Below are positions 1 to 56,822 of a stretch of 64,000 bases of DNA, in pieces (the first letter of the stretch is position 1; every line of letters begins with the position of its first letter). A program made the position numbers and the translations under genes. The notes beneath the pieces are model-generated. The model had not been told where the DNA came from. It ran no database searches and saw only the letters and a program-made list of their open reading frames with translations. Source of the DNA: Rickettsiales bacterium (GTDB lineage Bacteria; Pseudomonadota; Alphaproteobacteria; Rs-D84). The stretch is taken from contig JAITCH010000010.1 in the NCBI GenBank assembly GCA_031283185.1, forward strand, positions 63,237 through 127,236, written 5' to 3'.

Positions 1-2445
1 TTGGGAACGGTGTTGTCGAATTCCGAAGCGTCGCAGGATTATAGAGTTGTGCAGGACGAGGCGATAAGTGTTTGGTTTGAATTGGAAGACGGCCGGCGGA
101 TTATTGCCTGGACGACAACGCCTTGGACGCTTCCTGCGAACGAAGCATTGGCAGTGAATCCGAAAATGGAGTATGTGCAACTTCGTGCAGAGGACGGCAA
201 GAATTATGTAGTGGCAAAATCGCGTGCGGGCGCATACGAAAAACAACTCGGCACAAACATCACTGCGAATTTCACTGGCGATGCGCTGGTTGGAAAAAAG
301 TATAAGCCATTGTTTGCTTATTACAATGATGAAAAATTATATCACATTGCTGCGGGCGAATTTGTTTCCGACTCGGATGGAACGGGTATTGTGCATCTTG
401 CGCCTGCATTCGGAGAAGACGATTTTTGGACGCTGAAAAAGTCCGACCAACATTTTCCAGTTATTGTGAATGTTGATGACTTTGGCAATTTTACGGCGGA
501 AGTCCTGGGTTTTTCGGGAATGAATATTTTTGAAGCCAGTCCGAAAATAATTGAAAACCTGAAAAAATGCGGCAATCTTATCCGGCGCGAATCTTATTCG
601 CATTCGTATCCTTATGGTGATAGATCAAAGGAAAAACTGATTTATCGCGCGACTGATTCTTGGTATATAGATGTTCCAAAAATCCACGATGCGTTGTTGA
701 AAAATAACGAACAGGTTCGGTGGACAAGTGCAGGCGCGCGGTTTGCGGATTGGATAAAGAACGCGCGGCCGTGGAGCATATCGCGTAATCGTTTTTGGGG
801 CACGCCGCTGCCGATTTGGGAACGGGATGGCGAATATAAAATCTTTGGCAGCATTGCGGAAATTGAAAAGTTTTTTGACACGAAAATTGAAGACCTTCAT
901 CGCCCGACTTTGGACGCATTGGAAAAAGACGGCTGGCATCGCATCCCGGATGTTTTGGATTGTTGGGTGGAAAGCGGGTCAATGCCCTGGGCTTCATTGC
1001 ATTATCCGTTTGAGAATAAAGCGCGGTTTGATAAAGAATTCCCTGCGGATTATATTATCGAAGGGCAGGATCAAACGCGCGGTTGGTTTTATTCGCTGAT
1101 GGTGCTTGCGTCTGCATTGTTTTCAAAACCTGCGTTCAAGGCGGTTTCTGCGAACGGAATGGTCGTTGATGATAAAAAGAAAAAGTTATCCAAATCGGTG
1201 GGCAATTATTCTGATCCAATGGATTTGATAAATACTTATGGTGCGGACGCGGTGCGGCTTTATATCCTTGGGTCAAATTTCTTAAAGGCAGAGCCAGTCA
1301 GCATAGACCTGAAAGGATTGGTATTTTTAGAGCCGACTAAAACTATTCTTGTGCCGTTGTGGAACGCGTATCATTTCTTTACCCTTTACGCGAACGCTGG
1401 AAATATGACGGCCGGACGGGGTAGTGGTAATAATGTAATGGATAAATACATTTTATCCGAATTGAATGATTTGACGGCGGTTGCGAATGACTCGCTTGAA
1501 AATTATTCACCGGATTTGCTGACGCGTAAAGTTGTGGAATTCTTGGACATTCTGAATAATTGGTATGTGCGCTTGAACCGAGAAAGATTTTGGAATGAAG
1601 ACCAGGATGCGTTTAATACATTGTGGACGGCATTGTCGGATTTATGTCGGATTATCGCGCCTGTTGCGCCGTTTTTGGCGGAACATATTTTCCGCGCATT
1701 GAATAATGGCGCGTCTGTGCATTTGGAAAACTTCCCGACATATATAGAGAATAAAGAAACCGAAAGTCTAAGAACGATGCGGACGATTAGGGACATTGTG
1801 TCGGTTGGAAAAATGTTGCGCGAAAATGCGGGTCTTCGTAATCGCCTGCCATTGAACGAGTTGAAGATATATGGATATAAAGATTTTGATAATCACTTTA
1901 TTAAAATTATTGAAACCGAATTGAATGTTAAAAAAGTGTCGCCAATGGGAACGGATAGTTCATCGGTTGCGGAAAGTTTTGTGTATCTGATTACGCCGAA
2001 AATCGGCGCGCGCCTTGGGGCGAAGTTGAAAGAGATAATGTCCGCATCAAAACAGCCGAATTTCAATCCGGCGGAATTTGGATTGTTGCCGGACGAGTTT
2101 GAGATGCGTCTGAATGTTAAAGCGGGAATAACGGGCGCGGCATTGCCGGATAATACGGCGGTGGTGGTGCTTGATACCGATATAACGCCGGAATTGGTGG
2201 CCGAGGGCTTGGCGCGAGATGTCCTGCGTTTTGTGCAGGATACTCGTAAGGCTATGGATTTGGATGTGTCCGATAGAATAACTTTGGAATATGACGCGGA
2301 TGATGAATTGTCCGCCGCGATAGAGGCGCATTCGGTGATGATAAAGGAAAACGCATTGGCGACCGAACTTCGCCGCACGACTGGGCAGGGCGATTATTCC
2401 ACAGAAATAGAATCCCACAAAATTTCTATTAGGATTAATAAGTAA
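1..2445 (+). CDS. ileS: isoleucyl-tRNA synthetase, C-terminal ~814 aa (5' end outside window)
   Basis: The ORF runs in from the window edge. Class I aaRS features are present: TTTPWTLPAN, a KMSKS-like KKKLSKS and an IleRS-like C-terminal region. Confidence 0.9.
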   Translation: MGTVLSNSEASQDYRVVQDEAISVWFELEDGRRIIAWTTTPWTLPANEALAVNPKMEYVQLRAEDGKNYVVAKSRAGAYEKQLGTNITANFTGDALVGKKYKPLFAYYNDEKLYHIAAGEFVSDSDGTGIVHLAPAFGEDDFWTLKKSDQHFPVIVNVDDFGNFTAEVLGFSGMNIFEASPKIIENLKKCGNLIRRESYSHSYPYGDRSKEKLIYRATDSWYIDVPKIHDALLKNNEQVRWTSAGARFADWIKNARPWSISRNRFWGTPLPIWERDGEYKIFGSIAEIEKFFDTKIEDLHRPTLDALEKDGWHRIPDVLDCWVESGSMPWASLHYPFENKARFDKEFPADYIIEGQDQTRGWFYSLMVLASALFSKPAFKAVSANGMVVDDKKKKLSKSVGNYSDPMDLINTYGADAVRLYILGSNFLKAEPVSIDLKGLVFLEPTKTILVPLWNAYHFFTLYANAGNMTAGRGSGNNVMDKYILSELNDLTAVANDSLENYSPDLLTRKVVEFLDILNNWYVRLNRERFWNEDQDAFNTLWTALSDLCRIIAPVAPFLAEHIFRALNNGASVHLENFPTYIENKETESLRTMRTIRDIVSVGKMLRENAGLRNRLPLNELKIYGYKDFDNHFIKIIETELNVKKVSPMGTDSSSVAESFVYLITPKIGARLGAKLKEIMSASKQPNFNPAEFGLLPDEFEMRLNVKAGITGAALPDNTAVVVLDTDITPELVAEGLARDVLRFVQDTRKAMDLDVSDRITLEYDADDELSAAIEAHSVMIKENALATELRRTTGQGDYSTEIESHKISIRINK

Positions 2446-26498: not shown

Positions 26499-27503
26499 AT
26501 GAAAAAAATAGATCTTGTATATCTTTGGGTAGATGGCAGCGATGCGAAATGGCAGGCGAAAAAAAATGCCGCATTGAAAAAAGCAGGCATTTATAAAAAG
26601 ACTTCTGCGACATCTGCGAATCGTTGGCGCGATAATGACGAGTTGAAGTATTCGTTAAGGTCTGCGGAAAAATTCGCGCCGTGGATAAATCATATATATA
26701 TTGTGACAGACAGGCAGAAACCAAAATGGTTGAAAGAAAGCGCGCGCTTATCAATTATCAATCACGAACAAATTATGGAAAAAAAGTTTTTGCCGAACTT
26801 TAATGCATCAGCCATTGAAATTAATATATATAAAATTCCAGGGCTTTCGGAACACTTTCTTTATGCGAATGATGATATGTTTTTCGGCCGCCCAGTTAAG
26901 CCGGACTTTTTCTTTGATAGACGGGGTAATCCGATAGTGATTATGACAGGACGAAATAATTGGCGTGCTTTTGCGGGACACAAAACGCGGAATCTCTTCA
27001 AAACAATGAAGTGGAATGCCTTACGATTTGTCCAGCGCGTCTTCGGCGAAAAATATAATTTAACATTCAAACACGCGATAGAGCCATATCGCAAATCGTA
27101 TATGCAGGAAATGGCCGACAAATTTTATAAGGACATAATTGTGCCAAGTATGACGCAATTCCGAGACCGGGCGAATGTGCAGAGAGTTGTATTGCCACTT
27201 ATTGACAATGCGATGGGGCGCAATACGATAATGCTTAATTGGCGCGATGGTAAGAATCGGATAATTTATAATGTCCACCGCGAGCATAGGTTCTGGCATT
27301 TCATTCGTTGGATGTTTGCGGCATTGTTCGGATATATAAAGTATGATTGTTATGACAAGCAGTGGCGGATGAACAAAATTATTCAGAAACGCCACCCAGC
27401 ATTATTTGTGATAAACGATACGGCGGAATCTGATGCTGATTTTATCCGCACTGCGAATTTGATGAACGAAATGTTTCCAAAAAAATCCCAATTCGAAAAA
27501 TAA
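26499..27503 (+). CDS. Stealth-family protein (capsule polysaccharide phosphotransferase-like)
   Basis: CR1-like IDLVYLWVDGSD, and a CR2-like LYANDDMFF. Confidence 0.65.
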   Translation: MKKIDLVYLWVDGSDAKWQAKKNAALKKAGIYKKTSATSANRWRDNDELKYSLRSAEKFAPWINHIYIVTDRQKPKWLKESARLSIINHEQIMEKKFLPNFNASAIEINIYKIPGLSEHFLYANDDMFFGRPVKPDFFFDRRGNPIVIMTGRNNWRAFAGHKTRNLFKTMKWNALRFVQRVFGEKYNLTFKHAIEPYRKSYMQEMADKFYKDIIVPSMTQFRDRANVQRVVLPLIDNAMGRNTIMLNWRDGKNRIIYNVHREHRFWHFIRWMFAALFGYIKYDCYDKQWRMNKIIQKRHPALFVINDTAESDADFIRTANLMNEMFPKKSQFEK

Positions 27504-27594: not shown

Positions 27595-28233
27595 ATGAAA
27601 AAAATTCTTGCCGCATTAATTCTTTGCCCATCCGCCGCATTTGCCATTGAGGCGGATGTTTTGTCGCCCACGCATCGTAGTAATTTCGTTATGCTTTCGG
27701 TCATTCAGCCGAATATAATGTTCAAGACTGATGGCGAATGGCCGGGGCAGCATCACATCAGCGGCACTGGTATGGGCGTGGGTTTTGGGCGGAGGTTTCC
27801 GAATGGTTTTGCGGCGGACTTTGATTTTTCTTCGGTTAGCATAAATTTATTTTCGCCTAGCAAGCAGAATGCGTTGCAGTCGGGATCCTTGATGGGCGGC
27901 GTTATGTATGAGCATAACATTTGGGAAGGCATTGCGCCATATGTGGGTGCGGGTGTTGGCGGTGCGGTATGGGTGAATAATATAAAGTATCGCAATACGG
28001 ATCAGACTGGATTGATAAGCGATTGGTCGGTGCATACTGATACGGCGATGCGCTTAAACTTCGCATATTATGCAAGGGCGGGCGTGTGGGTTGAGTTAAG
28101 TGATCGGTTTGATATGGATTTGGGGGTGCGGTTTCAAGACCTTGGCCGTGCGCCGAATAGATATGGATATTTTGATATAGTTGGGCGGATAACGAATGTG
28201 CAATTCGGTATCGGCGTAGCATATAAATGGTAA
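27595..28233 (+). CDS. small outer-membrane beta-barrel protein (OmpA-like/OMP_b-brl family)
   Basis: Signal peptide, alternating amphipathic segments, and a C-terminal ...GVAYKW. Confidence 0.55.
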   Translation: MKKILAALILCPSAAFAIEADVLSPTHRSNFVMLSVIQPNIMFKTDGEWPGQHHISGTGMGVGFGRRFPNGFAADFDFSSVSINLFSPSKQNALQSGSLMGGVMYEHNIWEGIAPYVGAGVGGAVWVNNIKYRNTDQTGLISDWSVHTDTAMRLNFAYYARAGVWVELSDRFDMDLGVRFQDLGRAPNRYGYFDIVGRITNVQFGIGVAYKW

Positions 28234-28330: not shown

Positions 28331-28870
28331 TTAGAATTCTGTCTTAAACCCCAATCTTACAGATTCTGAATTTGCGGACACTTGAATCTTATCTTCATGC
28401 TTACCAACTAACACCCATGTAAATAAAGCTGAAACTGCTGCTCCTGCTATCACATCATGGGTATAGTGTGCTCTTATCTCTACTCTTTGCCAAGCAACTA
28501 TACCAGACATTATGTAAGGTGCGATTGCTTGCTTCCAACCATACCTTTTATGGACAAACATAGCCCCAGAGAAAGCACCTGCGGAATGTCCGCTCGGGAA
28601 AGACATATTATCAATCCCATTAGGCCTTTCTTCTTTCACAGTTCTTTTAAGTCCTTCCACCATAAGTTGAGAAGCAACTATCGAACTTGTTAATTGTAAA
28701 GCTCCTGCCCAATCTTCTTTACCAGCTGTCATTCCATAAGCATAAAATACCGAAGCGGATAAAAATAGATCACCCATTACACCCTTGTTCGTAAATGGAC
28801 CAGCATAAACTTCATTTGTCGTCAATGCCCAACAAATAAAGATTGTACCAAGAGTTCTAAGCCCTGACAT
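28331..28870 (-). CDS. PAP2-family phosphatase (lipid phosphate / lipid A phosphatase-like)
   Basis: PAP2 motifs KRTVKEERP, PSGHS and HYTHDV. Confidence 0.8.
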   Translation of the reverse strand: MSGLRTLGTIFICWALTTNEVYAGPFTNKGVMGDLFLSASVFYAYGMTAGKEDWAGALQLTSSIVASQLMVEGLKRTVKEERPNGIDNMSFPSGHSAGAFSGAMFVHKRYGWKQAIAPYIMSGIVAWQRVEIRAHYTHDVIAGAAVSALFTWVLVGKHEDKIQVSANSESVRLGFKTEF

Positions 28871-28892
28871 TTTCTTACTCCTTTTTTATGAC

Positions 28893-28919
28893 AAAAAAAG
28901 ACCACCATTAGTGGTGGTC
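28893..28919 (-). terminator. intrinsic terminator on the minus strand (GACCACCACTAATGGTGGTC + T7), 20 nt upstream of the PAP2 RBS
   Basis: Perfect 8-bp stem plus a T-run on the minus strand. It ends a ~180-nt minus-strand unit that starts near a TATAAT at 29090-29085. Confidence 0.6.
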
Positions 28920-29116
28920 AGGAGTTAGAACAGTCAAACATTGATGACCCTGTTGTCTTACGAGCAACAGCATCCTGACCATAAGTCAGGACATAAAATC
29001 AGTGCAATGTTTCGGTGTTCTAAGCCAAATCCACTAACTATGTCTTATCCCTGTTTTAGAGAGACAATGGGATAATACTACTAAATTATATGAGATTCAA
29101 TCGGAAAAGAAGTTTA

Positions 29117-29194
29117 GCGGGGCGGGGTCTCCTGACCCCGCCCCGCAATCGTCATCCCCGCGAAGGCGCGGATCTCAAATTGTATAATGCAAAT
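29117..29194. repeat. composite repeat, family B: G-rich hairpin GCGGGGCGGGGTCTCCTGACCCCGCCCCGC + GTCATCCCCGCGAAGGCGCGGATCTCAAATTGTATAATGCAAAT
   Basis: Same architecture as the copies at 2898-2970, 3326-3406 (inverted) and 55347-55453. Confidence 0.8.
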
Positions 29195-29257
29195 AAAATT
29201 CCACGCCACCATTGACGGGTGTGATAGGGTAGGGGTAATTTCCCATTAAAAAACCTG

Positions 29258-29286
29258 TTGCAATCTACATCACCACCCCTTATAAT
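29258..29286 (+). promoter_or_regulatory. consensus-like promoter TTGCAA-N17-TATAAT for tRNA-Ala/tRNA-Cys
   Basis: Hexamers lie 10 nt upstream of the tRNA-Ala 5' end. Confidence 0.6.
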
Positions 29287-29296
29287 CGCAACCTGT

Positions 29297-29372
29297 GGGG
29301 TCGTAGCTCAGTTGGTAGAGCGCTACGTTCGCATCGTAGAGGTCGGGCGTTCGAGTCGCCTCGGCTCCACCA
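29297..29372 (+). tRNA. tRNA-Ala (anticodon CGC), CCA encoded
   Basis: A cloverleaf can be folded by hand, with a G3:U70 identity pair. The anticodon loop is TTCGCAT and the T-loop TTCGAGT. Confidence 0.9.
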
Positions 29373-29404
29373 ATTTTTGCCAAACTTCGTTTAGTTGCAA
29401 ATAA

Positions 29405-29478
29405 GGCTCGGTGGCAGAGTGGTTATGCAGAGGACTGCAAATCCTTGTATGCCGGTTCGATTCCGACCCGAGCCTCCA
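29405..29478 (+). tRNA. tRNA-Cys (anticodon GCA), CCA encoded
   Basis: Acceptor stem GGCTCGG/CCGAGCC, anticodon loop CTGCAAA and T-loop TTCGATT. Confidence 0.9.
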
Positions 29479-29599
29479 AATTTCAATATATTATGGCACA
29501 AATCAAGGCCTTACCTGCCGCGCCCGCCTAGGGCGGGGTGGTCGGCAGGCGTATTCGCCCATCCCAAAATAGACAAAATAATAAATTTCACTAAACTAC

Positions 29600-29627
29600 T
29601 TGACAAACGGAGGCAGTGTGCTATATT
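29600..29627 (+). promoter_or_regulatory. promoter TTGACA-N16-TATATT for the sRNA candidate
   Basis: Near-consensus hexamers read from the sequence. Confidence 0.5.
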
Positions 29628-29633
29628 AATGCT

Positions 29634-29834
29634 GTCTGGGGGGAAACTTCCAGCCAGATTCCTTGGGTCACCAGACTCCCTCCTACATTCTCTCTCCTCT
29701 GGCCCCAAGGAACCAAGATTTTGCCGCATTTCATTTACGCGCGGCGCAGAGCTTAAAGCATTCTGTTTCTCCTTTCCTTCCTCCTTCATTTGGAATGCTT
29801 TGGTCCCCCGGATAAAACCGGGGGAAGTTTTTTA
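29634..29834 (+). ncRNA. candidate ~200-nt CU-rich small RNA with its own promoter and intrinsic terminator (CCCCCGG-ATAAAA-CCGGGGG + T6)
   Basis: Delimited by a promoter and a terminator, with no ORF. The pyrimidine-rich tracts CUCCCUCCUAC and CUCCUUUCCUUCCUCCUUC resemble anti-Shine-Dalgarno seed regions. Confidence 0.45.
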
Positions 29835-29837
29835 TCT

Positions 29838-29866
29838 TGCAAACTGATTGTGCTGACATTAATATC
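29838..29866 (+). promoter_or_regulatory. promoter TTGCAA-N17-TAATAT for tRNA-Leu
   Basis: Hexamers lie 14 nt upstream of the tRNA-Leu 5' end. Confidence 0.55.
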
Positions 29867-29880
29867 AATGGGCTTAAATG

Positions 29881-29965
29881 CGGTCGTGGCGAAATTGGTA
29901 GACGCACTACCTTGAGGTGGTAGCGAGTAAAATCATGGGAGTTCAAGTCTCCCCGACCGCACCAA
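29881..29965 (+). tRNA. tRNA-Leu (anticodon GAG), long variable arm, CCA encoded
   Basis: Acceptor stem GCGGTCG/CGACCGC, anticodon loop TTGAGGT and an 85-nt length with an extra arm. Confidence 0.9.
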
Positions 29966-30029
29966 TAATTTTTTTCTAAAATAAATCCCGGCTTTCGCCG
30001 GGATGATTTTTTATCCTGCTATTTTTTGA

Positions 30030-30551
30030 TTAAAACCAGCTCCGTTCTTTCAGAACGCCCCAGCCGATTTTCTTGCCGTCTTTTTTGCCAATCGCTATTT
30101 TCATATTTTCCATTTCCGCCGCAGTTAATCCGGCCATAAGGAACGACATATTCACCCGTCCCTCGGCATCCGCGTGTAAAATCGGAAGCGTTATATTGCT
30201 GCGTTCCTTTTCGCACTTTGCGGTGGTTTTGTCGGCCTTATACTTTTTCATATCGCATTTGGAAATGTCGTAAAGCCACAGGCTGTAATCGTTATTCGGC
30301 TTTACTCCGCTGATTTCCACGCGCATCACCAATCCGCTGTCCTTTTCTGTGAATCTAATCACGCCAAGTTCGGTTTTGGTTTCGCCCTTGATTTTAATGA
30401 CGCGGGCGCGAAGTTTCGTAATGTCGTCATTATTATGCGTTTCAATCGTGGTTTCCGGCTTTGTGTTTTCGCCAGATCCCGAATCCGAACACGCGCCGAG
30501 TGCCACCACGGACACCGCAAGCATTGCAATTTGTTTCAATGAATATGTCAT
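30030..30551 (-). CDS. hypothetical lipoprotein (173 aa)
   Basis: Lipobox LGAC. No domain is confidently recognised. Confidence 0.5.
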   Translation of the reverse strand: MTYSLKQIAMLAVSVVALGACSDSGSGENTKPETTIETHNNDDITKLRARVIKIKGETKTELGVIRFTEKDSGLVMRVEISGVKPNNDYSLWLYDISKCDMKKYKADKTTAKCEKERSNITLPILHADAEGRVNMSFLMAGLTAAEMENMKIAIGKKDGKKIGWGVLKERSWF

Positions 30552-55346: not shown

Positions 55347-55453
55347 GGCGGGTGGGGGTCTCCCGACCCCCACCCGAACATTTTACAAAAATTGCTTTTG
55401 CAATTTTTGTCATTCCCGCGAAGGCGGGAATCTCAGATTGTAAAATGCAAAAT
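55347..55453. repeat. composite repeat family B copy: GGGTGGGGGTCTCCCGACCCCCACCC hairpin, a 10-bp-arm palindrome spacer, and GTCATTCCCGCGAAGGCGGGAATCTCAGATTGTAAAATGCAAAAT
   Basis: Matches 2898-2970, 3326-3406 and 29117-29194. The repeat supplies the ATG/5' region of the downstream OMP gene. Confidence 0.8.
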
Positions 55454-56792: not shown

Positions 56793-56822
56793 CCGGGCGG
56801 GGTCTCCGAACCCCGCCCGGAA
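56793..56822. repeat. solo G-rich hairpin of repeat family B (CCGGGCGGGGTCTCCGAACCCCGCCCGG); may also serve as a terminator
   Basis: Same GGGGTCTCC-N-ACCCC design as the hairpins at 29117, 3378 and 55347. Confidence 0.6.

Follow-up and report, generated by a model that had tools for sequence, protein, structure and literature searches.

What does the untranslated stretch ahead of a PAP2-family phosphatase gene do in the genome of a Rickettsiales bacterium: regulate that gene, or encode an RNA of its own? The locus lies in a 64,000-nt stretch of contig JAITCH010000010.1 (hereafter the window), where positions 29090-28893 of the minus strand carry a promoter-like TATAAT, two hairpins and an intrinsic terminator, followed by the Shine-Dalgarno sequence (SD) and ATG of the PAP2 gene. 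A first-pass annotation had offered both answers, a leader controlling the phosphatase by regulated read-through or an independent small RNA (sRNA). Our analysis supports the former through the conservation and covariation of the element, its fixed position before varied open reading frames (ORFs), and predicted helices that exclude the terminator. We consider it very probable that the leader acts in cis by termination and antitermination and, for the combined statement, probable that it is a member of a conserved cis-regulatory RNA family working as a riboswitch-like transcription attenuator. That the RNA would itself be the direct sensor, a riboswitch, has in our judgement about an even chance. 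In order of transcription, the leader and its gene comprise the following features (window coordinates).

29100-29072, minus strand: alternative promoter TTGAAT-17-TATTAT (consensus promoter scan, 9/12)
29085-29090, minus strand: candidate -10 box TATAAT, with a putative transcription start near 29079-29078 (sequence, family comparison)
29042-29078, minus strand: P0, a variable 5' hairpin, GUAUUAUCCC ... GGGAUAAGAC (inverted repeat I3, 10 nt, 90% complementary)
28892-29044, minus strand: the whole conserved motif, putative sensor domain plus terminator, 153 nt (covariance models)
29031-29044, minus strand: 5' tail, t, conserved GACA and then GUUAGUGG (GACA 93-100% conserved; complementary to the apical half of the terminator)
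29016-29023, minus strand: P1 5' strand UUAGAACA, with conserved GG on its 5' side and CC on its 3' side (pairs with 28932-28925; 5/5 modelled pairs covary, with up to four pair types)
29005-29012, minus strand: P2 5' strand AAACAUUG (pairs with 28943-28936; 6/6 modelled pairs covary)
28973-28992, minus strand: P3 hairpin, arm a GUCCUGAC (28992-28985), loop UUAU, arm b GGUCAGGA (28980-28973) (helix 4, 95.6% paired)
28949-28971, minus strand: P4 hairpin, GCUGUUGC-UCGUAAGA-CAACAGG, with a GUAA (GNRA-type) loop (helix 5, 6/6 pairs covary)
28936-28943, minus strand: P2 3' strand CAAUGUUU (alignment, covariation)
28925-28932, minus strand: P1 3' strand UGUUCUAA, followed by conserved AACU (alignment, covariation)
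28916-28923, minus strand: a', UCCUGACC, a second copy of P3 arm a directly 3' of P1, overlapping the first 4 nt of the terminator stem
28893-28919, minus strand: intrinsic terminator, GACCACCA / CUAA / UGGUGGUC plus U7 (terminator scan; helix 7 covaries)
28914-28907, minus strand: t', CCACUAAU, within the terminator, predicted to pair with the 5' tail
28331-28882, minus strand: SD AGGAG (28882-28878) and PAP2-family coding sequence, ATG at 28870, 179 aa (Pfam match)

The terminator picked out in the first-pass annotation, GACCACCA-CTAA-TGGTGGTC (28919-28900) with its T7 run (28899-28893), was recovered independently by a terminator scan, and at 28919-28893 it combines an 8-bp stem containing five G-C pairs, a 4-nt loop and the T7. 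The two hairpins called there, CCTGACTTATGGTCAGG and CTGTTGCTCGTAAGACAACAG, are found within 28992-28973 and 28971-28949, where they form P3 and P4, and the TATAAT is present in the minus-strand sequence at 29090-29085. The spacing had been misjudged: rather than lying 20 nt from the ribosome binding site, the terminator has a T-run that stops 10 nt short of the SD and 22 nt short of the ATG. No sigma-70-like site was found by scanning the minus strand from the leader promoter to the ATG, in agreement with the earlier view that no separate promoter lies between terminator and gene. The intergenic space is divergent, with the PAP2 gene on the minus strand and a tRNA-Ala/Cys/Leu cluster on the plus strand (from 29297) that has its own promoter-like site at 29258-29286.

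Chance hairpins in an AT-rich intergenic region could appeal only to the generic frequency of terminator-like sites, of which the surrounding 3-kb region has 11 compared with 3.6 ± 1.5 in shuffles (terminator scan). This explanation keeps next to no probability, being already refuted by the folding energy of the 210-nt RNA (-67.4 vs -46 ± 4.5 kcal/mol in shuffles; z = -4.7, with 0/200 shuffles as good), by a covariance-model E of 1e-34, by conservation exceeding that of the adjacent protein, and by strong covariation.

Conservation was examined by blastn against related metagenome-assembled genomes (MAGs). The 153-nt core (29044-28892) lies within a region that is 74-80% identical over ~160-190 nt upstream of PAP2 orthologues, whereas the PAP2 proteins at those loci are only 49-63% identical; the leader is better conserved than the gene behind it. 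The orthologue loci come from MAGs labelled Candidatus Enterousia or Alphaproteobacteria and obtained from samples of chicken, goat, sheep, buffalo and human-associated origin, and the NCBI source label of the window PAP2 protein is a 'Rickettsiales bacterium' MAG. Enterousia is a member of the uncultured order Rs-D84, with genomes of ~0.75-1.0 Mb (PMC12306168). At more distant loci (L007/8/13/15, L012, L014, L024 and L029) the same element is recognisable despite many substitutions. Locus L001, from another sample, is the same as the window except for one base at 29169 and thus adds nothing to the comparison.

To extend the family, metagenomes were scanned with a covariance model built from a 14-copy alignment together with a DNA pattern based on the conserved words in P3 and after P1. 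True members made up 30 of the 54 pattern matches (28-146 bits with model R1 or R2), and the remaining 24, having no covariance-model match, were discarded as chance. R1 and R2 also detected extra paralogous copies (L002 1226-1388, minus strand; L003 4380-4564, plus strand; L016 4701-4919, plus strand), and further copies found by the models were a second one at L113 and those at L014, L024 and L029. The two L113 copies lie at 1627-1791 (minus strand) and 1938-2110 (plus strand); here, as at L002 and at L003/L016, two copies occur within 2 kb of each other. Altogether the covariance model identifies ~50 copies in Enterousia-like (Rs-D84) gut Alphaproteobacteria and metagenomes. On the window motif, R1 scores 151.7 bits (E 1e-34) and R2 129.7 bits; the second-best R2 match in the 64 kb reaches 16 bits with filters off, leaving a single copy. 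That second match (29919-30086) overlaps tRNA-Leu and its terminator and was judged spurious. Viral contigs scanned for the motif gave 0 matches, so we see no link to phage.

The fold obtained from the 14 copies with MAFFT and RNAalifold is a four-helix junction, P1-P4, followed by the terminator, with 16/35 pairs compensatory. Across 45 distinct copies, 93.9% of cells are paired, compared with 31-48% after sliding the 3' partners by 1-3 columns; double changes occur in 31/35 pairs (14-16 slid) and compensatory cells number 306 (29-50 slid). None of 500 shuffles reached the observed pairing and covariation values. Covariation extends to every pair in P1, P2 and P4, with four pair types at several of them, and the L002 paralogue, 1.6 kb from the PAP2 copy, has P1 as UUUACCG/CGGUAAA and P2 as ACAAACUA/UAGUUUGU, both fully compensated. 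P3 of the window has a U-A pair where most copies carry C-G, P4 is expanded into a branched stem in many copies, and the terminator hairpin and U-run are present in 45/45 aligned copies, with a covarying stem. Two further pairings were considered and dropped: for a GG...CC mini-hairpin at the 5' strand of P1, or for GG:CC pairs extending P1, both sides are invariant so that covariation is uninformative, and pairing of 5' GUUAG with CUAAC at the end of P1 is confined to the window clade. At two loci, L089 and L119, P2 and P3 are separated by a long insertion that contains additional hairpins; at L089 the model set the 5' end too far downstream, and the true P1 and P2 5' strands lie upstream of the reported match.

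At the 5' end, family copies have a -10 box 6-8 nt before the conserved GACA or before the P0 hairpin. In about half of the copies this box (TATAAT, TAAAAT or TACAAT) is 6-8 nt upstream of GACA itself, and in the other half, including the window, a P0 hairpin of unrelated sequence stands between the two. The window P0 5' arm (29078-29069) begins 7 nt after TATAAT and overlaps TATTAT. Because this 7-nt distance matches the family spacing, TATAAT is the better promoter candidate, from which the leader RNA would be ~187 nt long. TTGAAT-17-TATTAT, the site ranked first by the consensus scan, is a possible alternative, but its start would fall inside P0. At PAP2 orthologue loci without the leader (L017-L020, L025 and L026), a promoter-like block, TTGA(C)..TTATTCCTAT..TAATAT, occurs ~40-90 nt upstream of the start codon, and at L024 (about 2690-2725) it is found together with a diverged leader; its conserved spacer may be an operator or indicate a special promoter class.

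Every copy with enough downstream sequence has a same-strand SD and start codon 11-35 nt after the U-run. A possible exception to this fixed position is L084, with no ORF of at least 45 aa within its 318 nt downstream. The regularity bears on the idea of an independent trans-acting sRNA gene, which would lie upstream of PAP2 by coincidence or leave PAP2 to be expressed through leakage alone. Such a gene would explain the promoter-like box and strong terminator, and the predicted product would be stable, ~150-190 nt long and paired at its ends; terminated riboswitch leaders can act in trans elsewhere (SreA/SreB of Listeria). We nevertheless regard the sRNA as highly improbable: apart from the L084 caveat, ~50 copies occupy the coding strand 11-35 nt from an SD and start codon before many genes, including the divergent pair at L113, no promoter consensus is found between terminator and ATG, and the conserved alternative helices described below target the element's own terminator. 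The sRNA offered by the first-pass annotation is thus disfavoured, the element being modular, fixed at the 5' ends of ORFs, and leaving neither room nor consensus for a separate promoter.

The genes behind the motif include PAP2 phosphatases across numerous lineages, NucT-like proteins of the PLD family at 3 loci, an outer-membrane protein (OMP) beta-barrel, a GT10 alpha-1,3-fucosyltransferase, a GT92/GT2 enzyme, an ATP-grasp protein resembling TupA, an MsbA-like ABC exporter and short ORFs of 42-74 aa, together with several lipoproteins and secreted proteins that have no family assignment. The paralogous copies are followed by a 74-aa ORF, a secreted, Cys-rich ORF of 144 aa, and two divergent genes for a PLD/NucT-like protein and an ABC exporter. 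From these genes, the motif family appears to govern an envelope or surface regulon.

We then considered how the junction might communicate with the terminator. Arm b of P3 (GGUCRGGA) is complementary both to its hairpin partner a and to a' (UCCYGACC), which includes the first four bases of the terminator stem. The alternative b:a' duplex can form in 45/45 copies, with 7-12 contiguous pairs and -16 to -21 kcal/mol, and is at least as stable as a:b in 42/45, the other 3 being weaker by 0.4-0.5 kcal/mol. It is also kept in ~20 copies found through PAP2 homology and is therefore no artefact of the search pattern. Sequence changes run through all three strands: the window has U/A/U in a/b/a' where C/G/C is found elsewhere, and in the L003b/L024/L014 clade the strands are all altered, to CUCCAAYC / GGUUGGAG / CCUCCAACC. 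In 11 copies GGGAAG in b is coupled to CUUCCC in a', an AAG:CUU extension that adds two pairs and is not mirrored in a. In an anchored alignment, the b:a' helix has double changes in 7/11 pairs (2.7 ± 0.9 shuffled) and 81.6% of its cells paired (31-54% slid).

A second potential helix involves the extreme 5' end. The terminator offers a complement to the 5' tail (GACA..GUUAGUGG) in its distal 5' arm, its loop and the first base of its 3' arm (GUUAGUGG : CCACUAAU in the window), and the GAC of the tail can pair with the GUC that ends this 3' arm. The tail tracks variable terminator loops from copy to copy, as in GUUAGUAG:CUACUGAC, GUUAGCA:UGCUAGC, UUAAGUGG:CCACUUA and CAUAGUUAG:UUAACUAUG. Native tail:terminator duplexes average -8.4 kcal/mol, compared with -5.6 ± 0.36 kcal/mol when partners are permuted (p<2e-4); restricting the comparison to 33 copies with <80% identity gives -8.2 and -5.7 ± 0.42 kcal/mol (p<5e-5), with a mean z of -2.0 relative to shuffles of each copy's own terminator.

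The predicted conformers are close in energy. The minimum free energy (MFE) structure of the 153-nt window RNA (-52.4 kcal/mol) has P1-P4 closed by the tail helix and does not form the terminator, and the fold with junction and terminator is at -52.3 kcal/mol. Across the family, the MFE structure contains the tail helix in 23/45 copies and the terminator in 22/45, and the unconstrained MFE differs from the junction-plus-terminator fold by a mean of 3.2 kcal/mol (45 copies). These near-equal energies therefore suggest a system poised between terminating and non-terminating folds. They could also just give partial termination, as expected of a constitutive structured 5' untranslated region (UTR) that stabilises the mRNA or the terminated fragment, or sets a fixed low read-through with no switching; pairing of the 5' tail with the 3' end of the terminated RNA fits this too, in that paired ends protect from RNases. 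We find a constitutive UTR improbable, as it leaves unexplained why b has two covarying partners, a and a', one of them overlapping the terminator, and why a ~150-nt covarying four-helix junction precedes unrelated genes.

Under the attenuator reading that we favour, transcription would start ~7 nt after TATAAT, and the RNA would fold as the P1-P4 junction, with the optional P0 ahead of it, and continue directly into the terminator, 10 nt ahead of the SD. The terminating conformer would combine P3 (a:b), as an anti-antiterminator, with the terminator hairpin, and RNA polymerase would stop at 28893. In the read-through conformer, b (GGUCAGGA) would swap to a' (UCCUGACC) to give the antiterminator, while the 5' tail (GACA..GUUAGUGG) would clamp the distal 5' arm, loop and 3' end of the terminator. 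Between them, b:a' and tail:terminator would occupy the terminator from the first base up to the loop, so that the hairpin is blocked and PAP2 is transcribed. P1, P2 and P4 may be a constant scaffold or may be opened in the read-through state; in structural terms, either P1 and P2 would persist with b:a' as a pseudoknot, or the switch would be kinetic, or P1 and P2 would open. The choice of conformer would be set by a signal, a small molecule or an ion, sensed by the junction itself, and we lean modestly towards the folded junction with terminator being the signal-bound OFF state.

In the fold of the 210-nt RNA, CUCCU (window 28924-28920) pairs with the PAP2 SD AGGAG (28882-28878) around the terminator hairpin. 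The words of a and a' (UCCC, CUCC, CCUCC) look anti-SD-like and those of b (GGGA, GGAGG) SD-like. Such pairing could provide an extra translational layer in read-through transcripts.

The large covarying junction and the lack of a conserved leader ORF are what suggest the RNA itself as the sensor, and the element shows the generic features of riboswitches: a covarying structured domain, a place in the same-strand 5' UTR of many genes, and mutually exclusive predicted structures. A leader peptide was rejected, as ATG ORFs vary in position and length, are absent in L103 and L117 and span only 4-8 codons in L108, L012 and L029. NUG at P3 is not universal and lacks an SD, and the family leaders contain no conserved leader ORF.

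Alternatively, the same leader could be operated by a trans factor, an RNA-binding antiterminator or termination-promoting protein or an sRNA, whose target would be the conserved hairpin GUCCCGAC/GUCGGGA or the UCCCGAC word in its repeats. The sequences of P3 and a' show unusual conservation, with the same 7-8-nt word occurring twice, and the modest conservation of the junction, the uniform expression platform and a mixed regulon of surface genes, typical of protein-controlled regulons, would suit such a factor. However, the three-way pairing constraint already accounts for the conservation of a, b and a', the AAG:CUU extension obeys base pairing rather than a fixed protein site, and the large covarying P1/P2/P4 scaffold would be superfluous for a simple hairpin-binding protein. 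In addition, no candidate factor was identified, and the genomes are ~0.75-1.0 Mb (PMC12306168). We therefore consider control in trans unlikely.

Several observations weigh against a riboswitch-like attenuator and temper our preference for it. The downstream genes are heterogeneous and indicate no single metabolite. Among the unpaired positions, few reach 90% conservation (GACA, CC, G, A, U, A and AACU), and several of the conserved words (GAC/GUC) can be explained by helix swapping alone, with no binding pocket. The expression platform is the same in every copy, which is unusual for widespread riboswitch classes, although uniformity is expected for a family confined to one order. Covariation of b:a' amounts to few independent events, and 30 of the 45 copies came from the pattern that requires both b and a' strands. 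A nested read-through fold of the window RNA, with b:a' and the tail helix formed and P1/P2 open, reaches -42.3 kcal/mol, ~10 kcal/mol weaker than its competitors. Finally, the 45-copy alignment (A3) was fitted to the model structure, although an independent alignment (A2) yields the same helices, and all evidence on the leader family is computational.

Is this a known RNA? The first-pass annotation had recognised no riboswitch consensus, and Rfam bears it out. With the 4227 models of Rfam 15, cmscan at the gathering threshold passed only tRNAs in the window, and the same held for 20 other motif-bearing loci. At E<=10, the best non-tRNA matches within 28700-29350 reached 12-22 bits against cut-offs of 50-176; those to rseX, STnc370 and Phe_leader (17-22 bits) cover the terminator only and were set aside. 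A T-box was likewise rejected, with no cmscan match at E<=10 and downstream genes that are not aminoacyl-tRNA related. Our literature search on PAP2/LpxE leaders, riboswitch candidates and structured-ncRNA discovery (including PMC5737381, PMC8632094 and PMC11109978) returned no such motif. The leader family is absent from the databases and literature searched, a new family of a known kind of regulator.

Comparison with established systems clarifies that kind. The leader resembles terminator-type riboswitches in placing a covarying multi-helix junction ahead of the gene, in having the 3' side of the closing helix overlap the terminator before the SD, and in its near-equal folds. In such riboswitches, among them the pbuE/ydhL adenine ON switch and many OFF switches, a sensor helix competes with the terminator. 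The leader differs from them in lacking an Rfam match, in having two separate antiterminator helices, one from the swap of a P3 arm and one from the clamping 5' tail, where a single helix is usual, and in its invariant platform. The order of competing strands, with a:b as anti-antiterminator, b:a' as antiterminator and a'/T5':T3' as terminator, is that of 1:2/2:3/3:4 attenuators such as trp, pyr/PyrR and T-box, but there is no conserved leader peptide and no Rfam match to a T-box or PyrR site, and the switch is embedded in a large covarying junction. In Bacillus subtilis pyrG attenuation, the 5' end of the transcript reportedly pairs with the 5' strand of the terminator, and here too the extreme 5' end of the leader RNA would serve as an antiterminator strand against the terminator hairpin. 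Unlike the pyrG tail, which arises by reiterative G addition, the leader tail is templated and covaries with the terminator loop, and we see no sign of sensing of cytidine triphosphate.

Regulators of surface functions offer further parallels. As in cyclic di-GMP-I (GEMM) regulons, one motif stands before many unrelated surface, secreted and hypothetical genes, sometimes in clustered copies, but the leader has no sequence or structure match to GEMM. As with JUMPstart/ops and RfaH, leaders of envelope-polysaccharide genes would control transcription read-through; however, ops is a short element in the DNA that works through a paralogue of NusG and brings no terminator or RNA fold of its own, Rfam JUMPstart gives no match, and inspection of the leader sequence did not find the ops sequence GGCGGTAG. 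For the Mg2+-sensing M-box and Salmonella mgtA, cation-induced compaction permitting the terminator would fit the AU-rich P1/P2 and the envelope genes, by analogy with PhoPQ and lipid A, but the Rfam M-box model does not match and the architecture differs, so that Mg2+ sensing by the leader is purely hypothetical.

With this caution, a cation such as Mg2+ would be our leading guess for the signal, a speculation prompted by the AU richness of P1/P2, the presence of a lipid phosphatase and the parallel with PhoPQ logic; just as speculatively, a phosphate or nucleoside-scavenging signal would fit PAP2 plus NucT. Cationic peptides, named beside Mg2+ in the first-pass annotation, are likewise a hypothetical signal. 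Tentatively, and with somewhat less than even confidence, we propose that the family is a new riboswitch class of reduced-genome gut Alphaproteobacteria (Rs-D84, Enterousia-like), in which the junction would sense a host or envelope signal and act through a double antiterminator on a surface-remodelling regulon. The signal in that case would by our leading guess be Mg2+ or another cation, with a nucleotide-type messenger or scavenging metabolite also possible. Were this so, an RNA switch would fill the role of PhoPQ-type systems where protein regulators are few, and, if the signal is an ion or host cue, envelope would be remodelled through RNA in a manner analogous to two-component control in enterics. 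The family would bring in, from a never-cultured lineage, an orphan riboswitch or attenuator class with good support and give a first handle on cell-surface regulation in Enterousia-like gut symbionts (~0.75-1 Mb), covering a lipid phosphatase, glycosyltransferases, OMPs and a nuclease; the identity of the signal would place many hypothetical secreted proteins in a physiological context. Its interest lies in the strong covariation, the unusual three-partner and 5'-clamp design and the uncultured, reduced-genome hosts, and the design is directly testable by compensatory mutagenesis.

The protein encoded behind the window leader is a PAP2-family member, as the first-pass annotation had called it, with a match to Pfam PF01569 (2e-14; 53.9 bits vs cut-off 27.2) and the catalytic motifs KX6RP, PSGH and SRX5HX3D at K75..R82P83, P92SGH95 and R129..H135..D139, invariant in 31 homologues. 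The more specific label, lipid A phosphatase, stands less firmly: the best NCBIfam match is indeed LpxE (NF007159), but at 37 bits it is sub-threshold (cut-off 177). The closest solved structures are PgpB/YodM and LpxE, and the enzyme is below every equivalog cut-off, so the label is a guess. In this 179-aa family (28331-28870), the C-terminal Phe and the ...GFxTxF ending are nearly invariant (at least 90% of 31 homologues). The ending is reminiscent of an outer-membrane beta-signal, a likeness that would be odd for a helical membrane phosphatase. The neighbours of the PAP2 gene are also envelope-related, namely a Stealth CR1/CR2 protein of the capsule phosphotransferase family (26499-27503, plus strand) and a 212-aa OMP beta-barrel-like protein (27595-28233, plus strand) convergent with PAP2.

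Elsewhere around the leader, a perfect 13-bp G+C-rich palindrome, GCGGGGCGGGGTC-N4-GACCCCGCCCCGC, lies at 29117-29146, in the interval that separates the leader promoter from the divergent one of tRNA-Ala. Further palindromes of this kind are found at 55350-55375 and 56794-56819, and near-matches to the arm number 33 in the window compared with 15.8 ± 3.7 expected; these may be a family of hairpins resembling repetitive extragenic palindromes or acting as insulators. The divergent tRNA cluster, at 29297-29964 on the plus strand, comprises tRNA-Ala(CGC), tRNA-Cys(GCA) and tRNA-Leu(GAG). Another G+C-rich palindrome is found at ~29520-29560, and a bidirectional terminator-like hairpin at 29985-30004.

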